Shown one piece after another: positions 37,628 to 51,368 of a DNA stretch of 64,000 nucleotides. The DNA is taken from NCBI RefSeq assembly GCF_055900595.2, contig NZ_CM148325.1; one strand, written 5' to 3'. A program made the translations under genes and the position numbers. Below the pieces are notes generated by a model. That model was not told the origin of the DNA. It did no database searches and saw nothing but the letters and a program-made list of their open reading frames with translations. How positions within the stretch are numbered: the stretch's first letter is position 1; each line of letters starts with the position of its first letter.

Positions 37628-38320
37628 CTAGTGATAACCACGCGCGGTCATAAAATCCGTAATCGCTTTTTCTGCATCAACCAGCACCTTTTCCAGTGGC
37701 TGATTAGCATCGATATCAACCAGTTGTGCACCGCCAAAGGTTAACTGTGGCGTTATGGCAATCTTCCTCGCCAGCGATTCCCGTTTATGGTCGGGTTTAC
37801 GCGCGCAGGCAACTTCAAGGTCAACATTGAGTTTGATGACCAGATCAGGTTTATGGCTCGCCATCCAGTGAAACGCTTTACGTTCCTGGCTTGCCAGCCA
37901 TGAGACAAACCGGCCGCCTTCAACGTTAGGCGGGAACACTGTACCATCGTAAGCGCCAGGAATTTGGTCCTGAGGATAACGGTCGGTTAGAACAATTAAC
38001 CCGCGACGACGACAGGCAAGCATATGACGAAAGCGCAGTAAGCGACGGGCGACAAACGCTGTAATTACCAGCGCCGGAACTGGCCCAGGCAATTTTTTTG
38101 CTGTTTTCACCTGATTTCGTTCAATTGTTTTATGTAAGGATTTTCCCATCAACGGTAATTTTGTCACTGCACGACCGACATTTCCGGCCTGTTTTCCTAA
38201 ATGAACTCTTTCGGCAGCACCATATTTTTCGACAACGGTAATGAGATGTTCACACACCGTTGACTTGCCTGAACCATCGCTACCAATAACGGCAATTAAT
38301 GGAGGTGTTATTGACTGCAT
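37628..38320 (-). CDS. yghT: P-loop kinase-like protein YghT (thymidylate-kinase-like fold)
   Basis: 230-aa ORF; Walker [13 protein letters not shown]-type motif (LTDRYPQ); paralogous to the next two genes. Confidence 0.8.
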
Positions 38321-38493
38321 GAATATATCCTTTAATTTAAATATCCATTAAAAATATTTATTTGGTTAATATGTTTTTATGAAAGCGTAATTCAGGTCAA
38401 TGTCACAATTAACCATTGTCACAATAAGGTTGAACGGATATTCTGAGCACGGACCACGTAATATTCAATACATTATTTGCTGCCGGGTTTTTC

Positions 38494-39207
38494 GTGAATC
38501 AACGTAATATGTCAATAATTAATTCCACGCCAGTGCGTGTTATTGCCATTGTAGGATGTGATGGTTCAGGTAAATCGACCCTCACGGCAAGCCTGGTAAA
38601 TGAACTGGCAGCAAGAATGCCAACAGAACACATTTATCTCGGGCAATCGTCCGGGCGAATTGGCGAATGGATTTCACAGCTCCCTGTTATTGGCGCACCT
38701 TTTGGGCGTTATTTGCGAAGTAAAGCGGCACATGTGCACGAAAAGCCCTTAACACCGCCTGGCAATATTACTGCGCTGGTTATCTATCTGCTTTCCTGCT
38801 GGCGGGCGTACAAGTTTCGCAAAATGTTGTGTAAAAGCCAGCAAGGCTATCTGCTCATCACCGACCGCTACCCGCAGGTTGAAGTGCCGGGTTTTCGCTT
38901 TGATGGCCCGCAATTGGCAAAAACCACGGGCGGTAACGGCTGGATAAAAATGTTAAGGCAGCGCGAGCTGAAGCTGTACCAATGGATGGCGTCTTATTTG
39001 CCCGTATTGTTGATTCGTCTTGGCATTGATGAACAAACCGCGTTTTCGCGTAAACCTGACCATCAACTGGCGGCGTTACAGGAAAAAATCGCCGTTACGC
39101 CGCAACTGACATTCAATGGCGCCGGGATCCTTGAACTGGATGGTCGGCAACCAGCCGATGAAATTATGCAAGCGTCACTACGCGCAATTCACGCCGCGCT
39201 TTCCTGA
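38494..39207 (+). CDS. yghS: P-loop kinase-like protein YghS
   Basis: 237-aa ORF; Walker A GCDGSGKST, ITDRYPQ; paralogue of YghT/YghR. Confidence 0.8.
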   Translation: MNQRNMSIINSTPVRVIAIVGCDGSGKSTLTASLVNELAARMPTEHIYLGQSSGRIGEWISQLPVIGAPFGRYLRSKAAHVHEKPLTPPGNITALVIYLLSCWRAYKFRKMLCKSQQGYLLITDRYPQVEVPGFRFDGPQLAKTTGGNGWIKMLRQRELKLYQWMASYLPVLLIRLGIDEQTAFSRKPDHQLAALQEKIAVTPQLTFNGAGILELDGRQPADEIMQASLRAIHAALS

Positions 39208-39238
39208 TCACCAAAATGGATAGGGGATGATTTAACGA

Positions 39239-39997
39239 ATGGATGCACTACAAACACAAACTGTTAATAGTACAACCGTGCCGCAGCCCAACTACATTCC
39301 GGGGCTGATTGCGGTGGTCGGGTGTGATGGCACCGGTAAATCCACGCTGACCACCGACCTGGTGAAATCGCTGCAACAACACTGGCAAACCGAGCGCCGC
39401 TATTTGGGGCTGCTCTCCGGCGAAGACGGCGACAAAATCAAACGATTGCCGTTGGTTGGCGTCTGGCTGGAACGGCGACTGGCGGCCAAATCCTCGAAAA
39501 CCCAAAGCATGAAAACCAAATCTCCAGCGCTATGGGCGGCGGTGATTATGTACTGCTTCTCGCTGCGAAGAATGGCGAATCTACGCAAGGTTCAGCGACT
39601 GGCGCAAAGTGGCGTTCTGGTGGTCAGCGATCGCTTCCCGCAGGCTGAAATTTCGGGCTTTTATTATGACGGACCGGGGATTGGCGTCGAGCGCGCGACC
39701 GGGAAAATCAACCAATTTCTGGCGCAGCGCGAGCGACAGTTATACCAACAAATGGCGCAGTATCGTCCTGAATTAATCATTCGTTTGGGGATTGATATTG
39801 ATACTGCCATCTCCCGCAAGCCTGACCATGACTATGCCGAGCTGCAGGACAAAATCGGCGTCATGTCGACGATTGGCTATAACGGCACAAAAATTCTTGA
39901 GATTGATTCCAGAGCGCCCTACAGCGAAGTGCTGGAACAGGCACAGAAGGCGGTTTCTCTGGTTGCCATCGTTTCTGACCGCCGAAGTTTAACTTAA
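39239..39997 (+). CDS. yghR: P-loop kinase-like protein YghR
   Basis: 252-aa ORF; Walker A GCDGTGKST, VSDRFPQ; paralogue of YghS/YghT. Confidence 0.8.
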   Translation: MDALQTQTVNSTTVPQPNYIPGLIAVVGCDGTGKSTLTTDLVKSLQQHWQTERRYLGLLSGEDGDKIKRLPLVGVWLERRLAAKSSKTQSMKTKSPALWAAVIMYCFSLRRMANLRKVQRLAQSGVLVVSDRFPQAEISGFYYDGPGIGVERATGKINQFLAQRERQLYQQMAQYRPELIIRLGIDIDTAISRKPDHDYAELQDKIGVMSTIGYNGTKILEIDSRAPYSEVLEQAQKAVSLVAIVSDRRSLT

Positions 39998-40042
39998 GGC
40001 TGGCGGGATACTTTTTACTATCAACGATAAGGTCAGGCTGAA

Positions 40043-41392
40043 TTGGCGGGTTTTAACATCAAACATTGGTTTGCAGATGGCGCGTTTCGCACCATTATTC
40101 GCAATAGCGCCTGGTTAGGCTCCAGTAATGTCGTGAGCGCTTTGCTGGGTCTGTTGGCGCTCTCGTGTGCCGGTAAAGGGATGACGCCCGCCATGTTTGG
40201 CGTACTGGTGATTGTGCAATCGTACGCCAAGTCGATCAGCGATTTTATTAAGTTTCAGACATGGCAGTTGGTGGTGCAGTACGGAACGCCAGCCTTGACC
40301 AACAATAATCCGCAGCAATTTCGCAATGTCGTCTCATTTTCCTTCTCGTTGGATATCGTCAGCGGCGCGGTGGCGATTGTCGGCGGCATTGCCTTACTCC
40401 CTTTTCTTTCCCATTCATTAGGTCTGGATGACCAAAGCTTTTGGCTGGCAGCGCTGTATTGCACGCTCATTCCTTCAATGGCTTCCTCCACGCCGACCGG
40501 CATTCTGCGTGCGGTAGATAGCTTCGACTTAATTGCTGTACAGCAGGCGACGAAACCTTTTCTGCGCGCAGCGGGGAGCGTCGTTGCCTGGTATTTTGAC
40601 TTTGGTTTTGCGGGTTTTGTTATTGCCTGGTACGCCTCGAATCTTGTTGGCGGCACCATGTACTGGTGGTTTGCCGCACGTGAATTACGCCGCAGAAATA
40701 TCCATAACGCGTTCAAATTGAATCTGTTTGAGTCTGCCCGACACATCAAAGGCGCGTGGAGTTTTGTCTGGTCAACCAACATTGCCCATTCCATCTGGTC
40801 GGCGCGTAATTCGTGCAGCACAGTGTTGGTGGGGATCGTGTTAGGACCCGCTGCCGCCGGGTTATTTAAAATCGCCATGACATTCTTCGACGCCGCCGGA
40901 ACGCCAGCGGGTTTACTAGGTAAAAGTTTTTACCCAGAGGTGATGCGTTTAGATCCGCGCACCACCAGACCGTGGTTGTTAGGCGTGAAGTCCGGTTTAC
41001 TGGCGGGCGGAATCGGTATTCTGGTGGCGCTCGCGGTGTTGATCGTCGGCAAGCCGCTCATTTCGCTGGTGTTTGGCGTTAAGTATCTCGAAGCGTATGA
41101 CCTGATTCAGGTGATGCTGGGCGCAATTGTGATTTCGATGCTGGGCTTCCCACAGGAGTCATTGCTATTGATGGCGGGAAAACAGCGTGCTTTTCTCGTG
41201 GCGCAAACCATCGCCTCAATCGGCTACATCGTATTGCTGTTCATGTTCTGTCATCTGTTTGGCGTGCTGGGGGCTGCATTTGCTTACTTCGCTGGGCAAT
41301 GTCTGGATGTGGTGCTCTCGCTAATTCCAACCTTAAAGGCATTTTTTCAGCGCCATTCCTTGCTTTATAACGCAGCCGGAGAGAAATCCTGA
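40043..41392 (+). CDS. yghQ: Polytopic membrane protein YghQ (MOP/Wzx-like flippase family), full length here
   Basis: 449-aa ORF with about 12 predicted TM helices; TTG start as given by the ORF track (true start uncertain); stop overlaps the next ORF (TGATG). Confidence 0.75.
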   Translation: MAGFNIKHWFADGAFRTIIRNSAWLGSSNVVSALLGLLALSCAGKGMTPAMFGVLVIVQSYAKSISDFIKFQTWQLVVQYGTPALTNNNPQQFRNVVSFSFSLDIVSGAVAIVGGIALLPFLSHSLGLDDQSFWLAALYCTLIPSMASSTPTGILRAVDSFDLIAVQQATKPFLRAAGSVVAWYFDFGFAGFVIAWYASNLVGGTMYWWFAARELRRRNIHNAFKLNLFESARHIKGAWSFVWSTNIAHSIWSARNSCSTVLVGIVLGPAAAGLFKIAMTFFDAAGTPAGLLGKSFYPEVMRLDPRTTRPWLLGVKSGLLAGGIGILVALAVLIVGKPLISLVFGVKYLEAYDLIQVMLGAIVISMLGFPQESLLLMAGKQRAFLVAQTIASIGYIVLLFMFCHLFGVLGAAFAYFAGQCLDVVLSLIPTLKAFFQRHSLLYNAAGEKS

Positions 41393-42228
41393 TGATGAGA
41401 AAATATTTCCCGCTTGAGGCTAGCGAGCGTCTATTTGTTGCGATTGAAGAAGATGATGTCGTTGATGCACAGGTCAGTTTGCCGCCGACTATCGCACTAA
41501 GTTGTACCACCGAAATCATCCATGATAATTACGCGTTATGCCTGAAATTCTGGCTGGATGGTGTTAATCGTCAGGAGCTACTGCGTTTAATCCGCAAACA
41601 GGCGAAAGGCGATGAGCTGACGACAGACGAGCGCAAAAAGTATAAATACATGCGAGCGCGCTACAAGCATCTGCGCTTTGCGCAACGGCTGTATTTAAAG
41701 AAGCATCAGGCCGGATTTTTATTCGGCAAAACGACCGTTTTTTTGGGGCGTTTTCAGGACGGCTTTCGTAACGGTAAGAAAAATATTGTGTCGTATTACG
41801 GCAACCTGTTACGGGTTTATTTAAGCTCTCCGGTCTGGTCGTTGGTGAACTATTCATTACGCCATAGCCAGTTAGAAAGCGTAAGCGGTTTTATTGCCTA
41901 TCGGCAAAAGCAAATGCATACCCTGAAAGAGATAATTGCCAAACCGCGACTAACTGGCAGGGAATTTCATGATGTGCGAAAAATCATCAGCCAGCAGGTT
42001 TCTTATTACGACACCCTAAGATCGCTTGATCCTGAAAATAAAGAGGCGTTACAGATTTCCCGCTTCCTCGCCGCCATTAATGGCCTGATGGGGGATAAAC
42101 ACGACGACATGGTGGCGGATGATATGGAAAACCGCCAGTCGTATGATGCACCGATGGCGCTGGATAGCGATATTCGTCAGCGCTTAGAACTGCTGATTTC
42201 GCGTTTCCCACTCTATCCGGAGCAATAA
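41392..42228 (+). CDS. Hypothetical soluble protein (278 aa), coupled to yghQ
   Basis: Start overlaps the yghQ stop; stop overlaps the next start (TAATG); no motif recognised by eye. Confidence 0.6.
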   Translation: MMRKYFPLEASERLFVAIEEDDVVDAQVSLPPTIALSCTTEIIHDNYALCLKFWLDGVNRQELLRLIRKQAKGDELTTDERKKYKYMRARYKHLRFAQRLYLKKHQAGFLFGKTTVFLGRFQDGFRNGKKNIVSYYGNLLRVYLSSPVWSLVNYSLRHSQLESVSGFIAYRQKQMHTLKEIIAKPRLTGREFHDVRKIISQQVSYYDTLRSLDPENKEALQISRFLAAINGLMGDKHDDMVADDMENRQSYDAPMALDSDIRQRLELLISRFPLYPEQ

Positions 42229-42788
42229 TGCCATCTCGTTGGATTTTCGCTCTGATCATCGCACTCTTAGCGCCAGGCGCGGTGGCACACAATTTCGTCA
42301 CTGGTAAAACGGTTACCCCTGTTTATATCCAGGAAGGCGGTGAGTTGCTTCTGAATAGCGACGACGAAATTCACTACCAAAAGTGGAACAGCACACAGCT
42401 GGCGGGAAAAGTCCGCATTATTCAGTATATCGCCGGGCGTAAGTCGGCGAAGAAAAAGAACTCACTGTTAATTAAAGCGGTTGAAGCGGCAAACTTTCCG
42501 CAGGATCGTTTTCAGCCCACCACCATTGTGAACACCGATGATGCCATCTTTGGTACCGACTATTTTGTCGTTGGCAAAATCGAAAAAAATAAACGCCGCT
42601 ATCCATGGGCGCAATTCGTTATTGACGGCAATGGACAGGGACGTGTTGCCTGGCGCTTGCCGGAGCAGAGTTCAACCATTCTGGTGCTGAATAAAAACGG
42701 GCAAATTCAGTGGGCAAAGGACGGCAGCCTGACGCCGGAAGAGGTAGATCATGTCATTGCGCTGGCGCAGAAGCTGATCAATGAATAA
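42228..42788 (+). CDS. Secreted/periplasmic protein (186 aa), possibly YtfJ-like
   Basis: Cleavable signal peptide MPSRWIFALIIALLAPGAVAHN; translationally coupled to the upstream ORF. Confidence 0.6.
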   Translation: MPSRWIFALIIALLAPGAVAHNFVTGKTVTPVYIQEGGELLLNSDDEIHYQKWNSTQLAGKVRIIQYIAGRKSAKKKNSLLIKAVEAANFPQDRFQPTTIVNTDDAIFGTDYFVVGKIEKNKRRYPWAQFVIDGNGQGRVAWRLPEQSSTILVLNKNGQIQWAKDGSLTPEEVDHVIALAQKLINE

Positions 42789-42818
42789 AAAACTCAAAGG
42801 ATTGAGGGCGTTAGTGAG

Positions 42819-43889
42819 ATGAAGCTGGTTGAACACTACATCATGCGTGGTACGCGCCGTCTGGTGCTGATTATCGTCGGTTTTCTGATCTTTATTTTCG
42901 CCAGCTACTCCGCACAGCGTTATCTGACCGAAGCGGCAAATGGGACATTAGCTCTTGATGTTGTGCTGGATATCGTTTTCTACAAAGTGCTGATTGCACT
43001 GGAGATGCTGTTACCTGTTGGACTATATGCTTCAGTTGGCGTGACGCTAGGGCAAATGTATACCGACTCGGAAATTACCGCTATCTCCGCGGCGGGGGGC
43101 AGTCCGGGACGCTTGTACAAAGCCGTTCTTTATCTGGCGATACCGCTAAGTATTTTTGTCACCCTTCTGTCGATGTATGGTCGTCCGTGGGCTTATGCGC
43201 AGATTTATCAACTGGAGCAACAGTCACAGTCGGAGCTGGATGTTCGCCAGTTGCGGGCAAAGAAATTTAACACTAACGATAACGGACGAATGATCCTTTC
43301 GCAGACGGTTGATCAGGATAATAATCGCCTGACTGACGCGCTGATTTATACTTCTACTGCCAATCGAACCCGCATTTTCCGCGCCCGTTCGGTTGATGTG
43401 GTTGACCCATCACCTGAGAAACCGACCGTTATGTTGCATAACGGGACCGCCTATCTTCTCGATCATCAGGGGCGTGACGACAACGAACAGATCTACCGTA
43501 ATCTGCAATTACATCTGAATCCGCTGGATCAAAGCCCTAACGTCAAACGCAAAGCAAAATCGGTCACGGAGCTGGCGCGCTCCGCCTTTCCTGCCGATCA
43601 TGCCGAACTGCAATGGCGACAAAGCCGTGGCCTGACAGCATTGTTGATGGCGCTGCTGGCCATTTCATTAAGTCGGGTAAAACCGCGGCAAGGGCGATTT
43701 TCAACGTTATTGCCACTGACGTTGCTGTTTATTGCCATTTTTTATGGCGGCGACGTCTGCCGTACGCTGGTGGCTAACGGCGCGATTCCCCTCATTCCTG
43801 GTTTGTGGTTAGTACCCGGACTCATGCTAATGGGCCTGCTGATGCTGGTCGCACGCGACTTCTCTTTGCTGCAGAAATTTTCCCGATGA
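42819..43889 (+). CDS. LptF/LptG-family (YjgP/YjgQ) permease paralogue, first of a pair
   Basis: 356-aa ORF with N-terminal MKLVEHYIMRGTRRLVLIIVGFLIFIF resembling LptF/LptG; predicted TM helices flanking a periplasmic domain. Confidence 0.7.
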   Translation: MKLVEHYIMRGTRRLVLIIVGFLIFIFASYSAQRYLTEAANGTLALDVVLDIVFYKVLIALEMLLPVGLYASVGVTLGQMYTDSEITAISAAGGSPGRLYKAVLYLAIPLSIFVTLLSMYGRPWAYAQIYQLEQQSQSELDVRQLRAKKFNTNDNGRMILSQTVDQDNNRLTDALIYTSTANRTRIFRARSVDVVDPSPEKPTVMLHNGTAYLLDHQGRDDNEQIYRNLQLHLNPLDQSPNVKRKAKSVTELARSAFPADHAELQWRQSRGLTALLMALLAISLSRVKPRQGRFSTLLPLTLLFIAIFYGGDVCRTLVANGAIPLIPGLWLVPGLMLMGLLMLVARDFSLLQKFSR

Positions 43890-44965
43890 ATGTTTTCAGC
43901 CGCTATTTAATCCGTCATCTCTTTCTCGGTTTTGCCGCCGCCGCAGGGCTATTGCTGCCGCTTTTTACCACCTTCAACCTGATTAACGAACTGGATGATG
44001 TCGGCCCGGGCGGTTATCGCTGGACCCAGGCGGTGCTGGTGGTGCTGATGACCTTACCGCGCACACTGGTCGAACTTTCGCCGTTTATCGCCTTATTGGG
44101 AGGGATTGTCGGCCTGGGGCAACTATCGAAAAACAGTGAGCTTACCGCCATTCGCAGCACGGGGTTTTCTATCTTCCGTATTGCACTGGTGGCGCTGGTT
44201 GCCGGGATATTGTGGACTGTTTCGTTAGGCGCGATAGATGAGTGGGTGGCGTCGCCATTGCAGCAACAGGCGCTGCAAATCAAATCGACTGCCACCGCGT
44301 TGGGGGAGGACGATGACATTACCGGCAATATGCTTTGGGCCAGGCGCGGTAATGAATTTGTGACGGTGAAATCGCTGAACGAGCAGGGCCAGCCTGTGGG
44401 CGTGGAGATATTTCATTATCGCGACGATCTCTCGCTCGAATCCTACATTTTTGCACGCAGTGCCTCCATTGAAGACGACAAAACATGGATCCTGCATGGT
44501 GTGAATCATAAAAAATGGTTGAATGGCAAAGAAACGCTGGAAACATCAGATAATCTTACCTGGCAATCGGCCTTCACCAGTATGAATCTTGAAGAGTTAT
44601 CGATGCCGGGAAATACTTTTTCTGTCCGTCAACTTAATCATTACATCCATTATTTGCAGGAAACTGGGCAACCCAGCAGCGAATACCGCCTTGCACTGTG
44701 GGAAAAACTGGGACAACCCATCCTGACCCTGGCGATGATTTTGCTGGCTGTGCCGTTTACCTTTAGTGCCCCGCGTTCGCCTGGGATGGGTAGCCGTCTC
44801 GCTGTAGGCGTCATCGTGGGCTTACTTACCTGGATCAGCTATCAAATCATGGTCAATCTGGGATTGCTATTTGCGTTGAGCGCACCTGTTACCGCGCTCG
44901 GTTTACCGGTAGCGTTTGTGCTGGTGGCGTTGAGCCTGGTGTATTGGTATGACAGACAACATTAA
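43886..44965 (+). CDS. LptF/LptG-family (YjgP/YjgQ) permease paralogue, second of a pair
   Basis: ATG at 43886 overlaps the upstream stop (ATGA); MNVFSRYLIRHLFLGFAAAAGLLLPLFT... typical LptG-like N-terminus; 359 aa. Confidence 0.7.
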   Translation: MNVFSRYLIRHLFLGFAAAAGLLLPLFTTFNLINELDDVGPGGYRWTQAVLVVLMTLPRTLVELSPFIALLGGIVGLGQLSKNSELTAIRSTGFSIFRIALVALVAGILWTVSLGAIDEWVASPLQQQALQIKSTATALGEDDDITGNMLWARRGNEFVTVKSLNEQGQPVGVEIFHYRDDLSLESYIFARSASIEDDKTWILHGVNHKKWLNGKETLETSDNLTWQSAFTSMNLEELSMPGNTFSVRQLNHYIHYLQETGQPSSEYRLALWEKLGQPILTLAMILLAVPFTFSAPRSPGMGSRLAVGVIVGLLTWISYQIMVNLGLLFALSAPVTALGLPVAFVLVALSLVYWYDRQH

Positions 44966-44999
44966 ACCCGCCGTGGCGCAACACCACAGCGGGCTCACA

Positions 45000-46172
45000 T
45001 TACTGCTTCAGAGTAGCGAACGCTTGAATGATGGCATCAATTTGCTCACGACTGTGGGCAGCGTTTACGCTACAGCGCAGCAGCGTGATGCCTGCAGGCG
45101 CGGCAGGTGGCAGGATAAGATTCACATAAACGCCCAGCGAAATAAGCTCGCGCCAGATGCGTAAACCTTCCTCTTTCGAACCGATTATTACTGGCACTAC
45201 CGGGCTAATATGTGAACTTAACTCATAATCCAGTTTTTGCAGACCGTCATACAGATGGTTGGCATTATCCATCAGCTTTTGCCGCAACTCTGGTTGTGAG
45301 GCAATGGTTCTTAACGACGAGCGCACGGTCGCAATGCAGGACGGAGAAGGAGAGGCGGTAAAAATATACGGGCGGCTGCCGTAGCGCAACACTTCCATCG
45401 CTTCCGAACCGACAGCAAAACCGCCAATCGAGGCCAGACTTTTACTGAAGGTACCAACGATAATATCCACATCATCTTCAACGCCAACGGCTTCAGCCAG
45501 TCCGCGCCCCGTTGCGCCTAACACGCCAAACGAATGCGCTTCATCGACAATCAAATAACCACCGAGACGACGTTTGATATCAACAATTTCCGCCAGCGGC
45601 GCAACGTCACCGAGCATACTGTAGATGCCTTCAACGATGATAATCGCCTCTTTTGCCCGTTCACCGAGGCGAACCATGCGCCGTTCCAGATCTTTAGCAT
45701 CGTTATGGCGGAAACGAATAATTTCCGCGCCACCGAGAGAACAGGCGTCATAAATACTGGCGTGGCTGTCGGCATCCAGTAACACCACGGCGTTATGGTC
45801 GGCAAGTGCGCTGATGACGCCTAAATTAGCGGTATAACCGGTTGAAAAAACGATAGCGGTAGGGCGATTAAAAAACTCGGCGATCTCTTTCTCTAACGCC
45901 AGATGCGGCGCATAACTGCCGTTTGCCATACGAGAACCGGTGGTGCCGGTGCCTTGGGCCGCTAACGCTGCCTGACCTTCGGCGATGGCATCATGATTAA
46001 AGGTTAAACCGAGATAATTATTGGTCCCGGCCAGAATCACTTTTTTATTGCCGATCCGACCTTCGGTGGCGGAATACACTTCATCAATACAGGTGCCAAA
46101 CGGTGTTAACCCGTTGTCACTAAATTGCAGTCGCTCGCCAGCAAGGCGCGCATATTTATCGTATAGCCCCAT
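45000..46172 (-). CDS. PLP-dependent alpha-oxoamine synthase, serine-palmitoyltransferase-like
   Basis: 390-aa ORF with PLP-lysine motif GTFSKSLASIGG and DEAHSFG motif characteristic of SPT/KBL/BioF enzymes. Confidence 0.8.
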   Translation of the reverse strand: MGLYDKYARLAGERLQFSDNGLTPFGTCIDEVYSATEGRIGNKKVILAGTNNYLGLTFNHDAIAEGQAALAAQGTGTTGSRMANGSYAPHLALEKEIAEFFNRPTAIVFSTGYTANLGVISALADHNAVVLLDADSHASIYDACSLGGAEIIRFRHNDAKDLERRMVRLGERAKEAIIIVEGIYSMLGDVAPLAEIVDIKRRLGGYLIVDEAHSFGVLGATGRGLAEAVGVEDDVDIIVGTFSKSLASIGGFAVGSEAMEVLRYGSRPYIFTASPSPSCIATVRSSLRTIASQPELRQKLMDNANHLYDGLQKLDYELSSHISPVVPVIIGSKEEGLRIWRELISLGVYVNLILPPAAPAGITLLRCSVNAAHSREQIDAIIQAFATLKQ

Positions 46173-46420
46173 TATTTATTCTCCAGCCATGGAAGTAGTG
46201 TTTCCATTAATTGCGCAGGGGTTTTGACATCCAGCAGAATATTAATAGGAATGGAAATATCGAATCTGTCTTCCAGCATCATTAAGAGATCCATCACTTT
46301 GATCGACTCCAGGCCAAGATCGTTGACGAGATCGCTGTCGGGCTTAATTTCCACACCGTTTTCGACCAAATCCTGTAAACAGGAAAGGATGTAATCCATT
46401 ACTATTTCACGATTTACCAT
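46172..46420 (-). CDS. Dedicated acyl carrier protein
   Basis: 82-aa acidic ORF with phosphopantetheine-site motif DLGLESI; stop overlaps the SPT-like gene start. Confidence 0.75.
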   Translation of the reverse strand: MVNREIVMDYILSCLQDLVENGVEIKPDSDLVNDLGLESIKVMDLLMMLEDRFDISIPINILLDVKTPAQLMETLLPWLENK

Positions 46421-46451
46421 AGAAACGTTAACACACCTTTAAACAAGACAA

Positions 46452-47366
46452 TCAAAATAGCCCGTTGCGTAATGCGTGTTCCAGGCTAATCCCGGGAAAC
46501 CAATTAATATCTTCAGAAATACGGTTATTACTTGCTGACCAGTCGGCGTGGGTTAATTCACGGATTTTCGAGCGGGTCAGCATAGGTTCTTTACCTGCCA
46601 GGCGACTCAACGCGGTACTGATATCCGCAAGGCAGGTGAGTACCGACAGAGGAATACCAACCATTCGAACGGAACCGCAACGGGCGTCGGCGGCAAGTTG
46701 CTGTACGCGTTGCCAGTCATAGCCGCCGGCGACGCCATCGCATAATTCATAGGTTTGCGTCTGTACAGTTTCGGCGCTTAACCACTGCCCCACGGCTTGC
46801 GCGAAATCGGTGACGTGCAGGAAAGAGAGCTGTGTATCTGGCGCACCAAGTCGTGGCAGCAGGCCGCGCAGCATCCAGTCAAACAGCGGTTTTAACTCTT
46901 TATCGCCGGGACCATACACGGCTGTCGGGCGAAAAATGCCCAGCGTAATTTCGTCAGCCATTGCGGTCAGTCGTTGTTCGGCGACGTGTTTGGAATTTGC
47001 GTACCAGGAGAGTTCGGGATGACGCGCCGCCAGCGAAGAGATAAACAGAAAACGTTGGCAAAAGCCGCTCTCTTTTGCCGCTTGCATCAGGCGCAGGCTG
47101 CCGTCAACGTTACAGCGGGTAAAAATCTCTTCTTTGTGTCCGCGCACTTGTCCGGCGCAATGGACCACCGCGCTGGCTCCGGCAACCAGTTCGCTAAGCG
47201 AATGTGTATCTTCCAGCGAACCGCGCACCCAGATGAGATTATCATTGACGTGAGCGCGGGCAGTACGCGTCAATGCGCGAACGTGAAAGCCGCGGGCGAG
47301 CAGGTTATCGATAATATATTTACCGATAAACCCGGTAGCGCCCGTCACCGCGACAGTTTGATTCAT
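46452..47366 (-). CDS. NAD(P)-dependent epimerase/dehydratase-family reductase (extended SDR)
   Basis: 304-aa ORF with Rossmann motif VTGATGFIGKYI and YxxxK motif (YANSK); start overlaps the FAAL stop (ATGA). Confidence 0.75.
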   Translation of the reverse strand: MNQTVAVTGATGFIGKYIIDNLLARGFHVRALTRTARAHVNDNLIWVRGSLEDTHSLSELVAGASAVVHCAGQVRGHKEEIFTRCNVDGSLRLMQAAKESGFCQRFLFISSLAARHPELSWYANSKHVAEQRLTAMADEITLGIFRPTAVYGPGDKELKPLFDWMLRGLLPRLGAPDTQLSFLHVTDFAQAVGQWLSAETVQTQTYELCDGVAGGYDWQRVQQLAADARCGSVRMVGIPLSVLTCLADISTALSRLAGKEPMLTRSKIRELTHADWSASNNRISEDINWFPGISLEHALRNGLF

Positions 47367-49084
47367 GCCAGGGATTCCTGCACATGAAGGCTTGCAGCAT
47401 AAGCCTTCTGATAACGTTTTTTCGCTTCCGCACGGGCAGGCTTGCCGGAGGACGTTCGGGGAATACTGTGGGGCGGCAACAGATCGATAGCCGCGGTTAC
47501 GCCAAATTCGCTTTGGATCCGTGCTGCCAGTGCGTGGATAAGCTGCCCACGACGTTCTTCGTCGCTGATCCTACACTGGATCTGCAGAATGATTTTTTCC
47601 TGGGCGGTAACAAAAGCAATCGCATCGCCAGAATGAATTTCCGGTTCCTGTTCCGCAATATATTCAATATCCTGCGGCCAGATATTACGGCCACGAATAA
47701 TAATCAGATCTTTAATGCGTCCGGTGACATACAGATAACCGTCCAGCAGATAACCGAGGTCGCCGGTATCTAACCAGCCCGTCGCGGCAATCTCGTCTTG
47801 CGAAACCTGGTCGCCAAAGTAACCGCTCATCAGGCTGGGGCCGGAGATGCAAATATGGCCTACCACACGTTCCGCGACCGGCATACCTGCTTCATTGCGG
47901 ATTTCAATGCCATGTTCCGGCAACGCTTTACCGCAGTTGACGAAAGTCGATACGGCGCGTGTTTCAGCACCCGGCGCGACGGCTTTGCCCTGATATTCAA
48001 GGATGTCGCGATCCACTTCGTTAACCACAACCCCGGAGGCTTCATCAGAGAAGCTGACAGCCAGCGCATTTTCTGCCAGTCCGTAGCACGGCATGAACGT
48101 TTTATCGTCAAAGTTAACCTGACGGAAACATTCAGCGAATTGATGGAGTTGTTCTGCGGAGATGGGTTCTGCACCAATACCAGCGACGCGCCAGCAGGAA
48201 AGATCCAGTTCAGCGAGATCTTTTTCATTCACGCGGCGCTGGCACAATTCATAGCCAAACGGCGGCGCAACGGAAACGGTGCCGCGATTTTTACTGATCA
48301 ATTTAAGCCATTGCAGAGGACGCATGGCAAAATCCTGAGTGCGCAAATAATCTACTGAAAGCTGCGTGGCGACGGGGGTCAGGAGAAAGCCGACCAGTCC
48401 CATATCATGGTAGAAAGGCAGCCAGGAGACGCAGCGGTCGCCAGGGCGTAATTTAATGCCATCGTGGCTTATAGCACGTAGATTAGCCATCACTTCGCGA
48501 TGGGTGATAATGACGCCACGGGGAAAACGGGTGCTGCCGGAGGTGTACTGGAGGTAGGCGATATCGTTCGGAACTGGATGCTGGAGTGCAACATCGGCTT
48601 CCGGTAATGCCTTAAACCAGGCGTGGCTTAAAACATGTAATTCGGGGTTGTTATGCGTAGCGGCATTGACCAGTGGCAACCACTCATCACCAGTGATAAT
48701 GGCTGCGGGCTGGCAACTTGCCAGTAAACCCTGCAGTTTGGCGCTCCAGGAATCCCGCTGACCGATGCCCATTGGAATCGCCAACGGGACGGCGACTAAG
48801 CCGGCATACTGGCAGGAAAAAAAAGCCTCTACGAACCCGCTACTGGTTTCGGCAATCAGCGCCACGCGATCGCCTTTTTTCAGGTTCAGCGATAACAACC
48901 GCTTCGCACCAGCTTCGGCACGCGCTTTTAACGTCTGATATTCCAGTTGATCTTCAAGTTGGCAACGTCTGTCATAAAAATTCATTCCGGCGCTACTCAG
49001 AGCGGCGTAGTCCAAAGCATCAACCAGCGTTGGAAAATCGGCATAGCGCATAGGTAGGGAATGCGTAAAGATTTTATTAGACAT
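47363..49084 (-). CDS. Fatty acyl-AMP ligase / acyl-ACP synthetase (FAAL-type adenylating enzyme)
   Basis: Start set at ATG 49084 (MSNKIFTHSLPMRYADFPTL...; the ORF track's 49111 start is TTG); AMP-binding motif YTSGSTRFPRGV resembling FadD32-type FAALs. Confidence 0.8.
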   Translation of the reverse strand: MSNKIFTHSLPMRYADFPTLVDALDYAALSSAGMNFYDRRCQLEDQLEYQTLKARAEAGAKRLLSLNLKKGDRVALIAETSSGFVEAFFSCQYAGLVAVPLAIPMGIGQRDSWSAKLQGLLASCQPAAIITGDEWLPLVNAATHNNPELHVLSHAWFKALPEADVALQHPVPNDIAYLQYTSGSTRFPRGVIITHREVMANLRAISHDGIKLRPGDRCVSWLPFYHDMGLVGFLLTPVATQLSVDYLRTQDFAMRPLQWLKLISKNRGTVSVAPPFGYELCQRRVNEKDLAELDLSCWRVAGIGAEPISAEQLHQFAECFRQVNFDDKTFMPCYGLAENALAVSFSDEASGVVVNEVDRDILEYQGKAVAPGAETRAVSTFVNCGKALPEHGIEIRNEAGMPVAERVVGHICISGPSLMSGYFGDQVSQDEIAATGWLDTGDLGYLLDGYLYVTGRIKDLIIIRGRNIWPQDIEYIAEQEPEIHSGDAIAFVTAQEKIILQIQCRISDEERRGQLIHALAARIQSEFGVTAAIDLLPPHSIPRTSSGKPARAEAKKRYQKAYAASLHVQESLA

Positions 49085-49454
49085 ATACACCACGAAAAAA
49101 TTGGATATCAAAAATAAAATGACAATAATGCGGTGGATTATATAGGCATAAAAGATAAATGAGATAGTATTTTCATCAGTGTGAAAATGAACATTGATTT
49201 AAATAATGAGTTTGAGTTTTTTGTTTTTATTGTGAATGATATTTAATTTATGAATGTATTAAGAAGAAGCCTTGTCCGGTCGCCTTAAATCGACAAAAGG
49301 CATTGTGGCGCTTCTGTGTAGTCTCTGACCTTATCGTAATCATTAATAAATGCTATTTATTCGTCGTTTGTATTCATTGGGTTGATTATTAAGGTGCCGT
49401 TCGTTGCTGTTGCAACCTGTTTGTCACCGTTAATTATTTGTTACCCACAGAACT
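49085..49454. promoter_or_regulatory. AT-rich divergent intergenic region (probable promoters for the FAAL operon and yghO)
   Basis: 370 bp of strongly AT-rich sequence with poly-A/T tracts between divergent genes; no individual promoter element is called. Confidence 0.4.
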
Positions 49455-50597
49455 ATGGAATGCGATCTGCTGATGATTAAAATTGAAAAAGTAATTAATA
49501 AAAATGACCTTAAGGCATTTATCGCTTTTCCGTCATCACTTTATCCCGACGATCCAAACTGGATACCCCCTTTATTCATTGAACGCAACGAGCATTTGTC
49601 TGCGAAAAATCCGGGGACGGACCATATCATCTGGCAGGCGTGGGTGGCAAAAAAAGCCGGGCAGATAGTTGGGCGAATTACCGCGCAAATCGATACCTTG
49701 CACCGTGAGCGTTACGGTGAAGATACCGGTCATTTCGGCATGATTGACGCCATTGATGATCCGCAGGTTTTTGCCGCGTTGTTTGGCGCAGCGGAAGCGT
49801 GGTTGAAGTCACAAGGTGCAAGTAAGATCAGCGGTCCTTTCAGCCTGAATATCAATCAGGAAAGCGGATTACTGATTGAAGGTTTCGATACACCACCCTG
49901 TGCGATGATGCCGCACGGTAAACCGTGGTATGCCGCGCATATTGAACAATTGGGTTATCACAAAGGCATTGATTTACTAGCGTGGTGGATGCAGCGAACC
50001 GATCTCACTTTCTCTCCGGCGCTAAAAAAACTGATGGATCAGGTGCGTAAGAAGGTGACCATTCGCTGCATCAATCGCCAGCGGTTTGCCGAAGAGATGC
50101 AGATCCTGCGTGAGATTTTCAACTCTGGCTGGCAGCACAACTGGGGATTTGTGCCGTTTACCGAACATGAATTCGCGACTATGGGCGATCAACTTAAATA
50201 TCTGGTGCCGGACGATATGATCTACATCGCTGAGATTGATTCTGCACCCTGCGCGTTTATTGTTGGCTTGCCAAACATCAACGAGGCGATTGCCGATCTG
50301 AACGGATCGCTCTTTCCCTTCGGCTGGGCAAAATTGCTGTGGCGTTTAAAAGTCAGCGGTGTGCGAACTGCGCGAGTACCGCTGATGGGCGTGCGGGACG
50401 AGTATCAGTTTAGCCGCATCGGCCCGGTGATTGCGCTGTTATTGATTGAAGCCTTACGCGATCCGTTTGCCCGCCGGAAGATCGATGCGCTGGAAATGTC
50501 ATGGATCCTCGAAACCAATACAGGCATGAATAACATGCTGGAACGCATTGGGGCAGAGCCGTACAAGCGTTACCGATTGTATGAAAAGCAGATTTGA
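49455..50597 (+). CDS. yghO: YghO, acyl-CoA N-acyltransferase-like protein, apparently full length
   Basis: 380-aa ORF (alternative start at ATG 49473); recognised as the full-length counterpart of the K-12 yghO remnant. Confidence 0.7.
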   Translation: MECDLLMIKIEKVINKNDLKAFIAFPSSLYPDDPNWIPPLFIERNEHLSAKNPGTDHIIWQAWVAKKAGQIVGRITAQIDTLHRERYGEDTGHFGMIDAIDDPQVFAALFGAAEAWLKSQGASKISGPFSLNINQESGLLIEGFDTPPCAMMPHGKPWYAAHIEQLGYHKGIDLLAWWMQRTDLTFSPALKKLMDQVRKKVTIRCINRQRFAEEMQILREIFNSGWQHNWGFVPFTEHEFATMGDQLKYLVPDDMIYIAEIDSAPCAFIVGLPNINEAIADLNGSLFPFGWAKLLWRLKVSGVRTARVPLMGVRDEYQFSRIGPVIALLLIEALRDPFARRKIDALEMSWILETNTGMNNMLERIGAEPYKRYRLYEKQI

Positions 50598-50603
50598 TGG
50601 CAG

Positions 50604-51368
50604 TCACCCCTGCTTCATCTCCAGCGGCACCGCCGAGCGAATCAAATGGTGGCCTTCCAGCTCGATATCGTGGAGATTCTTTTTCACGGTCCGCACATGA
50701 TCGCGTGCTGCGCGCTGGGCGACGTGCGGCAGCCGCTGCAACACCGCGTTGTAGATCCGCGCATGCTGGCGATCGATCTGCTTTTTTTGCTGTGGTCGAT
50801 GGTAGAGATTATTTACGCTGGCAAACACTGAATTAAACATCAGATCGGTCAATGATTGCAGCGTAAACACCAACACCTGATTGTGAGAAGCCTGACAAAT
50901 GGCGAGATGGAAAGCGTGATCCAACTGCGCATGTTCGATCAGCGAAATCTCTTTGTTGTTCTCACTGGCGGCGAGCATTTTTTCATAACAGCGGGTTATC
51001 ACAACAAAATCAGCCTGGGTTCCCAGCGTTGCCGCAAGCCTTGCCGATTCCCCCTCCAGCAATGCGCGAACGTCGAGCAGATCGTACAGCGTTCGCGGCT
51101 GCGTGCTGAACAGATGAATTAGCGGGCTGGTATCCTGCACCCGATTAAGCCGTGCGACACGAGAATCGCGACCCTGCGCTGTTTCAATAATCCCGCGCCC
51201 GCGCAGCACGGTCAGCCCTTCACGCAGTGCGGAGCGTGAGAAGCCGAGCTTTTCACACAGTCGACGTTCCGAGGGAAGCGGCTGACCGACCTTCAGTACG
51301 CCGTCGATAATTAACCGTTCGATACTCTCTGCAACCACTTCGCAAATAGGGCGACGTTCATCTTTCAT
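50604..51368 (-). CDS. glcC: GntR/FadR-family glycolate operon activator GlcC
   Basis: Start at ATG 51368 (MKDERRPICEVVAESIERLII..., 254 aa). Confidence 0.95.
   Translation of the reverse strand: MKDERRPICEVVAESIERLIIDGVLKVGQPLPSERRLCEKLGFSRSALREGLTVLRGRGIIETAQGRDSRVARLNRVQDTSPLIHLFSTQPRTLYDLLDVRALLEGESARLAATLGTQADFVVITRCYEKMLAASENNKEISLIEHAQLDHAFHLAICQASHNQVLVFTLQSLTDLMFNSVFASVNNLYHRPQQKKQIDRQHARIYNAVLQRLPHVAQRAARDHVRTVKKNLHDIELEGHHLIRSAVPLEMKQG

Follow-up and report, generated by a model that had tools for sequence, protein, structure and literature searches.

Which enzyme would form the amide bond of a ceramide-like lipid in E. coli? The question is raised by a stretch of 64,000 nucleotides (contig NZ_CM148325.1 of assembly GCF_055900595.2), hereafter called the window, in which the gene yghO (49455..50597, plus strand) lies next to genes for a fatty acyl-AMP ligase (FAAL), a short-chain dehydrogenase/reductase (SDR), an acyl carrier protein (ACP) as well as a serine palmitoyltransferase (SPT). 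It is highly probable that E. coli YghO is orthologous to the ceramide synthase of bacteria known as CerS, bCerS or Aca, i.e. a soluble or peripheral tandem GNAT protein of about 374 amino acids that acts as an amide-forming N-acyltransferase. An earlier note on this DNA had placed YghO in the position of this acyltransferase, and the placement is supported by the GNAT fold of the protein, by its gene neighbourhood and by the published orthology to Caulobacter CC_1154.

The assignment itself is already known. Padilla-Gomez et al. 2022 (PMC9386255) equate the two genes in the legend of their Figure 9 ("aca: CC_1154, yghO ECD_02850") and propose that the aca/yghO product converts sphinganine to dihydroceramide. 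Since the assignment is in print, the finding is not novel. Their Table S2 lists CC_1154 (Aca) versus ECD_02850 (YghO) with an E value of 1e-107, 61% similarity, 98% coverage and 44% identity, all of them published BLAST values. What the present analysis adds is the tandem-GNAT fold, a count of gene neighbourhoods across phyla, the distribution in 5426 genomes, a start-codon issue and the exact lesion in K-12.

Reading frame, family and fold of YghO

In the six-frame list of open reading frames of the window, yghO starts with ATG and encodes 380 amino acids, and RefSeq labels the same sequence in E. coli KY 1497 as 'yghO: protein YghO'. The earlier note had described a full-length frame divergent from FAAL-SDR-ACP-SPT; the frame list, RefSeq and the NCBIfam matches all agree with this description. 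Since the four genes lie on the opposite strand directly upstream of yghO, the divergent arrangement is real.

The start codon deserves a comment. The first six codons (MECDLL, 49455-49472) form an N-terminal extension that, in a comparison of start codons with other genera, is restricted to Escherichia. Orthologues from Serratia, Pluralibacter, Erwinia, Hafnia and others have 374 amino acids and begin at the position equivalent to M7 (49473). In these genera an AAGG Shine-Dalgarno motif precedes the M7-equivalent start; E. coli has no AAGG at that spacing. Judged from these alignments, the conserved start is probably M7, giving a core of 374 amino acids, with the start used by E. coli itself being uncertain. 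The divergent intergenic region between the RefSeq start of the FAAL gene and yghO (49052..49454) is rich in AT, the 49000-49499 bin having 34% GC. The gap amounts to about 340-400 bp, and the FAAL reading frame can be extended to 49111. Both the yghO and the FAAL promoter presumably sit in this region. A promoter and terminator consensus scan of 49052..49454 performed no better than on shuffled sequence, and therefore no promoter was mapped there.

YghO belongs to a large family: in a protein library clustered at 50%, 6489 representatives were retrieved at E<=1e-3, of which 1128 also reach E<=1e-30. Nearly all representatives comprise 370-390 amino acids and align from end to end. One member carries the source name 'Hypothetical protein associated with Serine palmitoyltransferase'. 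Names within the family vary widely and include 'dATP pyrophosphohydrolase', 'DNA-binding protein', 'N-acetyltransferase' and 'YghO' (P0271, P0299, P0301 and AFDB entries), and the family lacks a Pfam or NCBIfam model in spite of more than 1000 diverse representatives. A member of 784 amino acids (P0121) resembles two YghO-like units in tandem.

The AlphaFold2 model of YghO, calculated from a 56-sequence alignment, has a mean pLDDT of 95.2, a pTM of 0.92 and zero disordered segments. It describes a globular alpha/beta protein, for which no transmembrane segments are predicted. Structure searches account for the whole chain at high confidence by two GNAT domains, with the mixed beta-sheet and the beta4-alpha3 acyl-CoA site of this fold, and Foldseek retrieved GNAT structures at E values of 1e-15 to 1e-11. 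The acyltransferase fold, which the earlier note had inferred, is thus found in a confident model that contains neither a DNA-binding domain nor an unrelated fold.

At the sequence level the relationship is much fainter. A phmmer search of YghO against the PDB sequences gave chance matches only, none of them significant. With a profile of 56 homologues all matches to PDB sequences stayed below threshold, and eight of the 11 weak matches were GNAT structures. PF00583 is matched by 5/56 family members at E<=1e-3 and by 20/56 at E<=0.1. The C-terminal half of YghO contains G306-V-R-x3-Q312-x2-R315-x-G317, which can be aligned with the pyrophosphate-binding motif A (acyl-CoA site) of 3tt2 and 7q3a, in sub-threshold hidden Markov model matches only. 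Among the 11 closer homologues (alignment A2) G306 is invariant, and conservation reaches at least 90% for both Q312 and G317. No sequence similarity is detectable between one half of YghO and the other; therefore it takes the structure to reveal the tandem architecture.

The fold also bears on a legacy annotation, according to which YghO would bind DNA and regulate transcription of either the adjacent operon or the glc genes. Several family entries are indeed titled 'DNA-binding protein' or 'DNA-binding transcriptional regulator'. However, no helix-turn-helix or other DNA-binding Pfam domain was found in YghO or in 56 relatives, the two GNAT domains leave no part of the chain unexplained, and the neighbouring glcC is already a separate gene for a GntR-family regulator. 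The GNAT fold effectively refutes a regulator identity, which we consider next to impossible.

Gene neighbourhood of yghO homologues

For a wider view, 80 loci were taken from contigs of one genome per species, found by a scan with an 11-sequence alignment, and each locus was searched by tblastn with the window proteins. The yghO relatives are 44-96% identical, and the neighbourhood was defined as 10 kb from the yghO homologue. The loci span Enterobacterales, Pseudomonas, Salinicola, Nitrococcus, Nitrosomonas, Nitrosospira, Nitrospira, Gemmatimonadota, Desulfobacterales, Rhodobacteraceae, Methylomirabilis and others. An SPT homologue lies in the neighbourhood at 38/80 loci, at least one of FAAL, SDR, ACP and SPT at 45/80, and a pair of paralogues of the lipopolysaccharide transport proteins LptF and LptG at 48/80. 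A pathway gene or the LptF/LptG paralogues are present at 70/80 loci, which extend over Gamma-, Beta-, Alpha- and Deltaproteobacteria, Nitrospirota, Gemmatimonadota and Methylomirabilis. The earlier note had named a different fold and a frequent absence of the SPT-like operon as grounds for refutation, and its proposal withstood both checks.

Serratia liquefaciens shares the layout of the window, with yghO divergent from FAAL-SDR-ACP-SPT. In Nitrosomonas the yghO homologue stands beside LptF2/G2 and the spt genes are elsewhere; in N. eutropha, for example, Neut_1100 is separate from Neut_0458-0461 (PMC9386255). Within the Enterobacterales YghO is 75-84% identical, compared with 74-88% for SPT and 60-74% for SDR. 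Conservation of YghO is thus like that of SPT and above that of SDR, which indicates strong purifying selection. Together with the neighbourhood at 70/80 loci, this SPT-like conservation supports the interpretation as a ceramide synthase.

Alternatively, YghO might be an ordinary acetyl-CoA-dependent N-acetyltransferase of protein lysines or small amines that is found near the SPT operon by coincidence. Database names such as 'N-acetyltransferase' and 'GNAT family N-acetyltransferase' agree with this, the closest solved structural relatives are acetyltransferases, and a paralogue outside any SPT context exists in Shimwellia. YghO was furthermore among the GNAT candidates of a lysine-acetyltransferase screen, in which the K-12 protein was overexpressed from the ASKA collection (PMC6199490). 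That screen, however, reported only RimI, YiaC, YjaB and PhnO as new enzymes (PMC6199490), so that overexpressed K-12 YghO was not among the four. Since the K-12 allele has an altered N-terminus, this result is weak evidence. The conservation of a sphingolipid-gene neighbourhood across phyla and the orthology to a gene that is genetically required for dihydroceramide also speak against this reading. Consequently, we regard a plain N-acetyltransferase as very improbable.

The Shimwellia paralogue was found in S. pseudoproteus as a second yghO copy with 75% identity (locus L015, 10001-11152); the same genome also contains the canonical cluster (L006). The second copy has der (engA) on one side and, on the other, an enterochelin-esterase-like gene and a gene for a fused MsbA-like ABC transporter, with no sphingolipid gene nearby.

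Proposed pathway and acyl donor

The equivalents of spt, acpR, aasR and cerR all lie within 4.5 kb of yghO in the window, on the minus strand. The FAAL gene (47363..49051 in RefSeq) encodes the orthologue of AasR, a specialised acyl-ACP synthetase, and matches NCBIfam NF006624 with 874.6 bits (cutoff 600); CC_1165 (AasR) and ECD_02851 align with an E value of 1e-155, 42% identity and 97% coverage (this and the following three comparisons from PMC9386255, Table S2). The SDR gene (46452..47366) belongs to the NAD-dependent epimerase/dehydratase family by its NCBIfam SDR matches and is the orthologue of CerR/Epi, the 3-keto reductase of the pathway (CC_1164 versus ECD_02852: 7e-38, 34%, 94%). An ACP of 82 amino acids (46172..46420), the orthologue of AcpR, is recognised by ACP family matches (CC_1163 versus ECD_02853: 3e-08, 41%, 61%). 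The gene named spt in RefSeq (45000..46172) encodes the pyridoxal phosphate-dependent SPT and matches the equivalog model NF047599 with 595.8 bits (cutoff 500; CC_1162 versus ECD_02854: 4e-144, 53%, 96%).

Several of these proteins have been studied biochemically. The ACP of E. coli (ECD_02853) carries 4'-phosphopantetheine and is acylated by E. coli AasR, and the SPT of E. coli BL21 was assayed and prefers acyl-AcpR over acyl-CoA (PMC9386255). When AcpR, AasR and SPT were overexpressed in BL21, compounds migrating like sphinganine or ceramide appeared, 'possibly by intrinsic enzymes', and ECD_02850 was named as the candidate intrinsic enzyme (PMC9386255). For Caulobacter, CC_1154 is required for dihydroceramide formation (PMC11324152).

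On this basis the following sequence of reactions can be proposed. AasR would activate a fatty acid and load it onto AcpR, and SPT would condense acyl-AcpR with serine to 3-oxo-sphinganine; both steps were demonstrated with the E. coli proteins (PMC9386255). YghO would then use an acyl thioester to place a second acyl chain on the C2 amine and so create the amide bond of (oxo-)dihydroceramide, a step attributed to it from orthology, fold and synteny. Its acyl donor is most likely acyl-CoA, and according to the motif alignment the transfer would take place in the C-terminal GNAT half. The SDR (CerR) would reduce the 3-keto group before or after acylation by YghO, and YghQ together with LptF2/LptG2 would probably move the product toward the outer membrane.

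The nature of the acyl donor allows a variant of this scheme, in which YghO performs the same amide-forming step with acyl-AcpR, such that FAAL and ACP would feed both chains of the ceramide. In E. coli and Serratia yghO and the FAAL gene form a divergent pair, which would fit such a donor, as would the position of FAAL as the gene nearest to the yghO homologue in most clustered loci, the preference of the SPTs of this group for acyl-AcpR over acyl-CoA (PMC9386255) and a possible YghO-FAAL fusion (P0191). GNAT enzymes, however, typically use CoA thioesters and the Caulobacter enzyme is called an acyl-CoA N-acyltransferase (PMC9386255). Moreover, the Nitrosomonas homologue is accompanied by LptF2/G2 and stands away from the FAAL gene, and the P0191 fusion was found on an error-prone contig. 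Acyl-AcpR is hence an improbable donor in our view, and acyl-CoA is retained. The fusion protein itself comprises 940 amino acids (L085, 8001-10823), with a gene for a monogalactosyldiacylglycerol (MGDG)-synthase-type glycosyltransferase just downstream.

Some observations weigh against YghO as a ceramide synthase. In Pfam-A and NCBIfam scans no model matched YghO; PF00583 is likewise without a match in YghO itself, and the canonical GNAT motif Q/R-x-x-G-x-G/A is only partly present. Neither a pathway gene nor LptF/LptG lies within 10 kb at 10/80 loci, four of which are on contigs shorter than 10 kb. These loci and the second copy in Shimwellia suggest that the family may not be strictly mono-functional. 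The P0191 fusion does not provide strong evidence, since its contig contains many split genes and the fusion may thus be a frameshift or sequencing artefact. In the literature we found no paper in which E. coli YghO was deleted, purified or assayed. Reviews still give phosphatidylethanolamine, phosphatidylglycerol and cardiolipin as the sole major membrane lipids of E. coli (PMC10191378).

The order of acylation and reduction is disputed, and the location of the SDR bears on it. In the E. coli SDR the GxxGxxG Rossmann motif begins at residue 9 and the sequence has no signal peptide; Caulobacter CerR was reported to be periplasmic (PMC11087976). The E. coli enzyme would then be either cytoplasmic or exported in a non-classical way.

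Downstream of spt, the plus strand carries genes of a putative export route. The LptG paralogue (LptG2, 43886..44965 in RefSeq; TIGR04408, 306.8 bits) is probably one half of an export permease dedicated to the lipid. The LptF paralogue (LptF2, 42819..43889) was identified by TIGR04407 (317.5 bits) and by its co-occurrence with yghO homologues. A second LptF/LptG pair is the commonest neighbour of yghO homologues (L017, L020-L062 and others), ahead of SPT. An AFDB entry titled LptF/LptG family permease (A0A9E6RH89, 752 amino acids) appears to fuse a YghO-like half to a permease; like the possible P0191 fusion, it would fit the reading of YghO as a ceramide synthase. This fusion and the frequent LptF/LptG neighbours suggest a link between the acyltransferase and an Lpt-type route of export dedicated to its product. 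YghQ (40043..41392, plus strand), a 'lipopolysaccharide biosynthesis protein' in RefSeq, resembles MOP-family flippases by a weak NCBIfam match, is conserved with the cluster and is a candidate for carrying the lipid across the inner membrane.

Two further plus-strand genes lie between yghQ and lptF2. A conserved hypothetical protein of 278 amino acids (41392..42228), situated between yghQ and ytfJ, travels with the cluster, as judged by conservation; it has no NCBIfam or Pfam match. It occurs near yghO homologues in Enterobacterales and, with about 50% identity and at a distance of about 10 kb from them, in Luteibacter and Dyella. The YtfJ-family protein (42228..42788; TIGR01626, 210.8 bits) has a signal-peptide-like N-terminus and is part of the conserved enterobacterial cluster; its gene adjoins the cluster in Shimwellia, Pluralibacter, Citrobacter, Pseudocitrobacter, Hafnia and Rosenbergiella.

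Two groups of genes come into question for head-group chemistry. YghR, YghS and YghT, encoded with YghQ at 37628-41392 (yghT, yghS, yghR, yghQ), are three paralogous P-loop proteins with weak dTMP-kinase-type matches. They and YghQ accompany the SPT cluster in Serratia, Erwinia, Rosenbergiella, Mangrovibacter and one betaproteobacterial metagenome-assembled genome (L041), and their role is possibly in head-group chemistry. A homology to CpgB, the ceramide kinase of Caulobacter, was considered for them and rejected, because their matches are weak and of the dTMP-kinase type and CpgB is a lipid kinase with a GGDG motif (PMC10331486).

In Serratia, Erwinia, Tatumella, Rosenbergiella and Mangrovibacter yghO is followed, after about 50-230 bp, by a gene of the DgkA family of prokaryotic diacylglycerol kinases (120 amino acids; L003, 11354-11716; also L004, L008, L009, L010, L013, L014 and L019); E. 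coli has glcC at this place. E. coli DgkA phosphorylates ceramide in vitro, so the DgkA-like gene could encode a ceramide kinase in those genera.

Distribution in E. coli and comparison with known systems

In 5426 complete E. coli genomes, with presence defined as at least 80% coverage, yghO was found in 4529, spt in 4092 and the whole region 44900-50700 in 4065. The intact cluster is the majority state of the species, at about 75%. About 440 genomes contain yghO without spt, and about 880 are without both.

K-12 contains yghO without spt because of an IS5-associated deletion. In BW2952 a copy of IS5 is located between yghQ, which is truncated at its 3' end and a pseudogene, and yghO (L001, 4952-7103). 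About 8.4 kb are missing, corresponding to window positions ~41100-49495, i.e. the gene for the 278-residue protein, ytfJ, lptF2, lptG2, spt, the ACP, SDR and FAAL genes and the first ~13 codons of yghO. K-12 yghO is thus an orphan which has lost its promoter region and whose N-terminus is derived from the junction. The remaining residues 15-380 of the window protein are kept at 98% identity within an annotated coding sequence for 378 amino acids. The description of K-12 yghO as only a remnant in the earlier note is therefore imprecise: what was lost at the IS5 junction is the 5' end, the promoter and the operon, and the coding region is nearly complete.

If YghO is a working ceramide synthase, a complete pathway to sphingolipids, absent from K-12, is present in roughly three quarters of the sequenced E. 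coli, an idea already published (PMC9386255), and the textbook picture of the E. coli envelope would change. A relevance for host interaction is possible as well, because bacterial sphingolipids signal to the host. A far-reaching version of this would be that most natural E. coli and many other Enterobacterales are able to produce an envelope lipid based on ceramide, which has escaped notice because the locus is deleted in K-12 and its AT-rich promoter is silent in the laboratory. In such a lipid YghO would form the amide bond, possibly from acyl-AcpR, the head group would differ from that of Caulobacter and be added via YghR/S/T or the DgkA-like kinase (Serratia, Erwinia, Tatumella), and YghQ with LptF2/LptG2 would serve as a private export route. 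This combination is speculative, and we think it rather unlikely in its entirety.

The closest known system is that of Caulobacter crescentus, whose CC_1154 (CCNA_01212, UniProt A0A0H3C8X0) has a length similar to that of YghO and, according to the published value, full-length homology to it. The clusters of ten representatives with about 44% identity contain Kiloniellales and Dongiaceae and no Caulobacter, and there is no Caulobacter entry among the top AFDB50 matches. bCerS was described as a cytoplasmic, peripherally membrane-associated acyltransferase and placed before the reductase (PMC11087976); YghO resembles it in having no predicted transmembrane segments. Both clusters include spt, acpR, aasR, cerR, LptF/LptG paralogues and a flippase. 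In Caulobacter LptC, LptF and LptG are each present as a second copy, along with a putative flippase (PMC11324152), and these parallel LptF2, LptG2 and yghQ of the window. In contrast to the divergently adjacent E. coli yghO, CC_1154 is eight genes away from spt (CC_1162) by locus number. Furthermore, no homologue of the Cpg head-group proteins was seen in the E. coli cluster, which contains yghQRST, YtfJ and the 278-residue protein instead.

Tandem-GNAT structures available for comparison are MAB_4324 (7q3a), a glucosamine N-acetyltransferase (5kf1), clavulanate Orf14 (2wpw), mycothiol synthase MshD (1ozp) and N-myristoyltransferase (2p6e). They share only 11-14% sequence identity with YghO, with no significant match at the sequence level. 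Most of these relatives use acetyl-CoA and soluble substrates, whereas a long-chain acyl donor and a lipid amine are predicted for YghO.

With the eukaryotic ceramide synthases (Lag1, TLC) YghO would share the reaction, namely N-acylation of a sphingoid base from an acyl thioester. Bacterial and eukaryotic ceramide synthesis converged, as the title of Stankeviciute et al. 2022 states. A multi-pass membrane TLC domain is absent from YghO, which has no corresponding Pfam match and a globular alpha/beta model. The eukaryotic enzymes are intrinsic membrane proteins (PMC11087976) of unrelated fold and topology, in contrast to the GNAT protein YghO.

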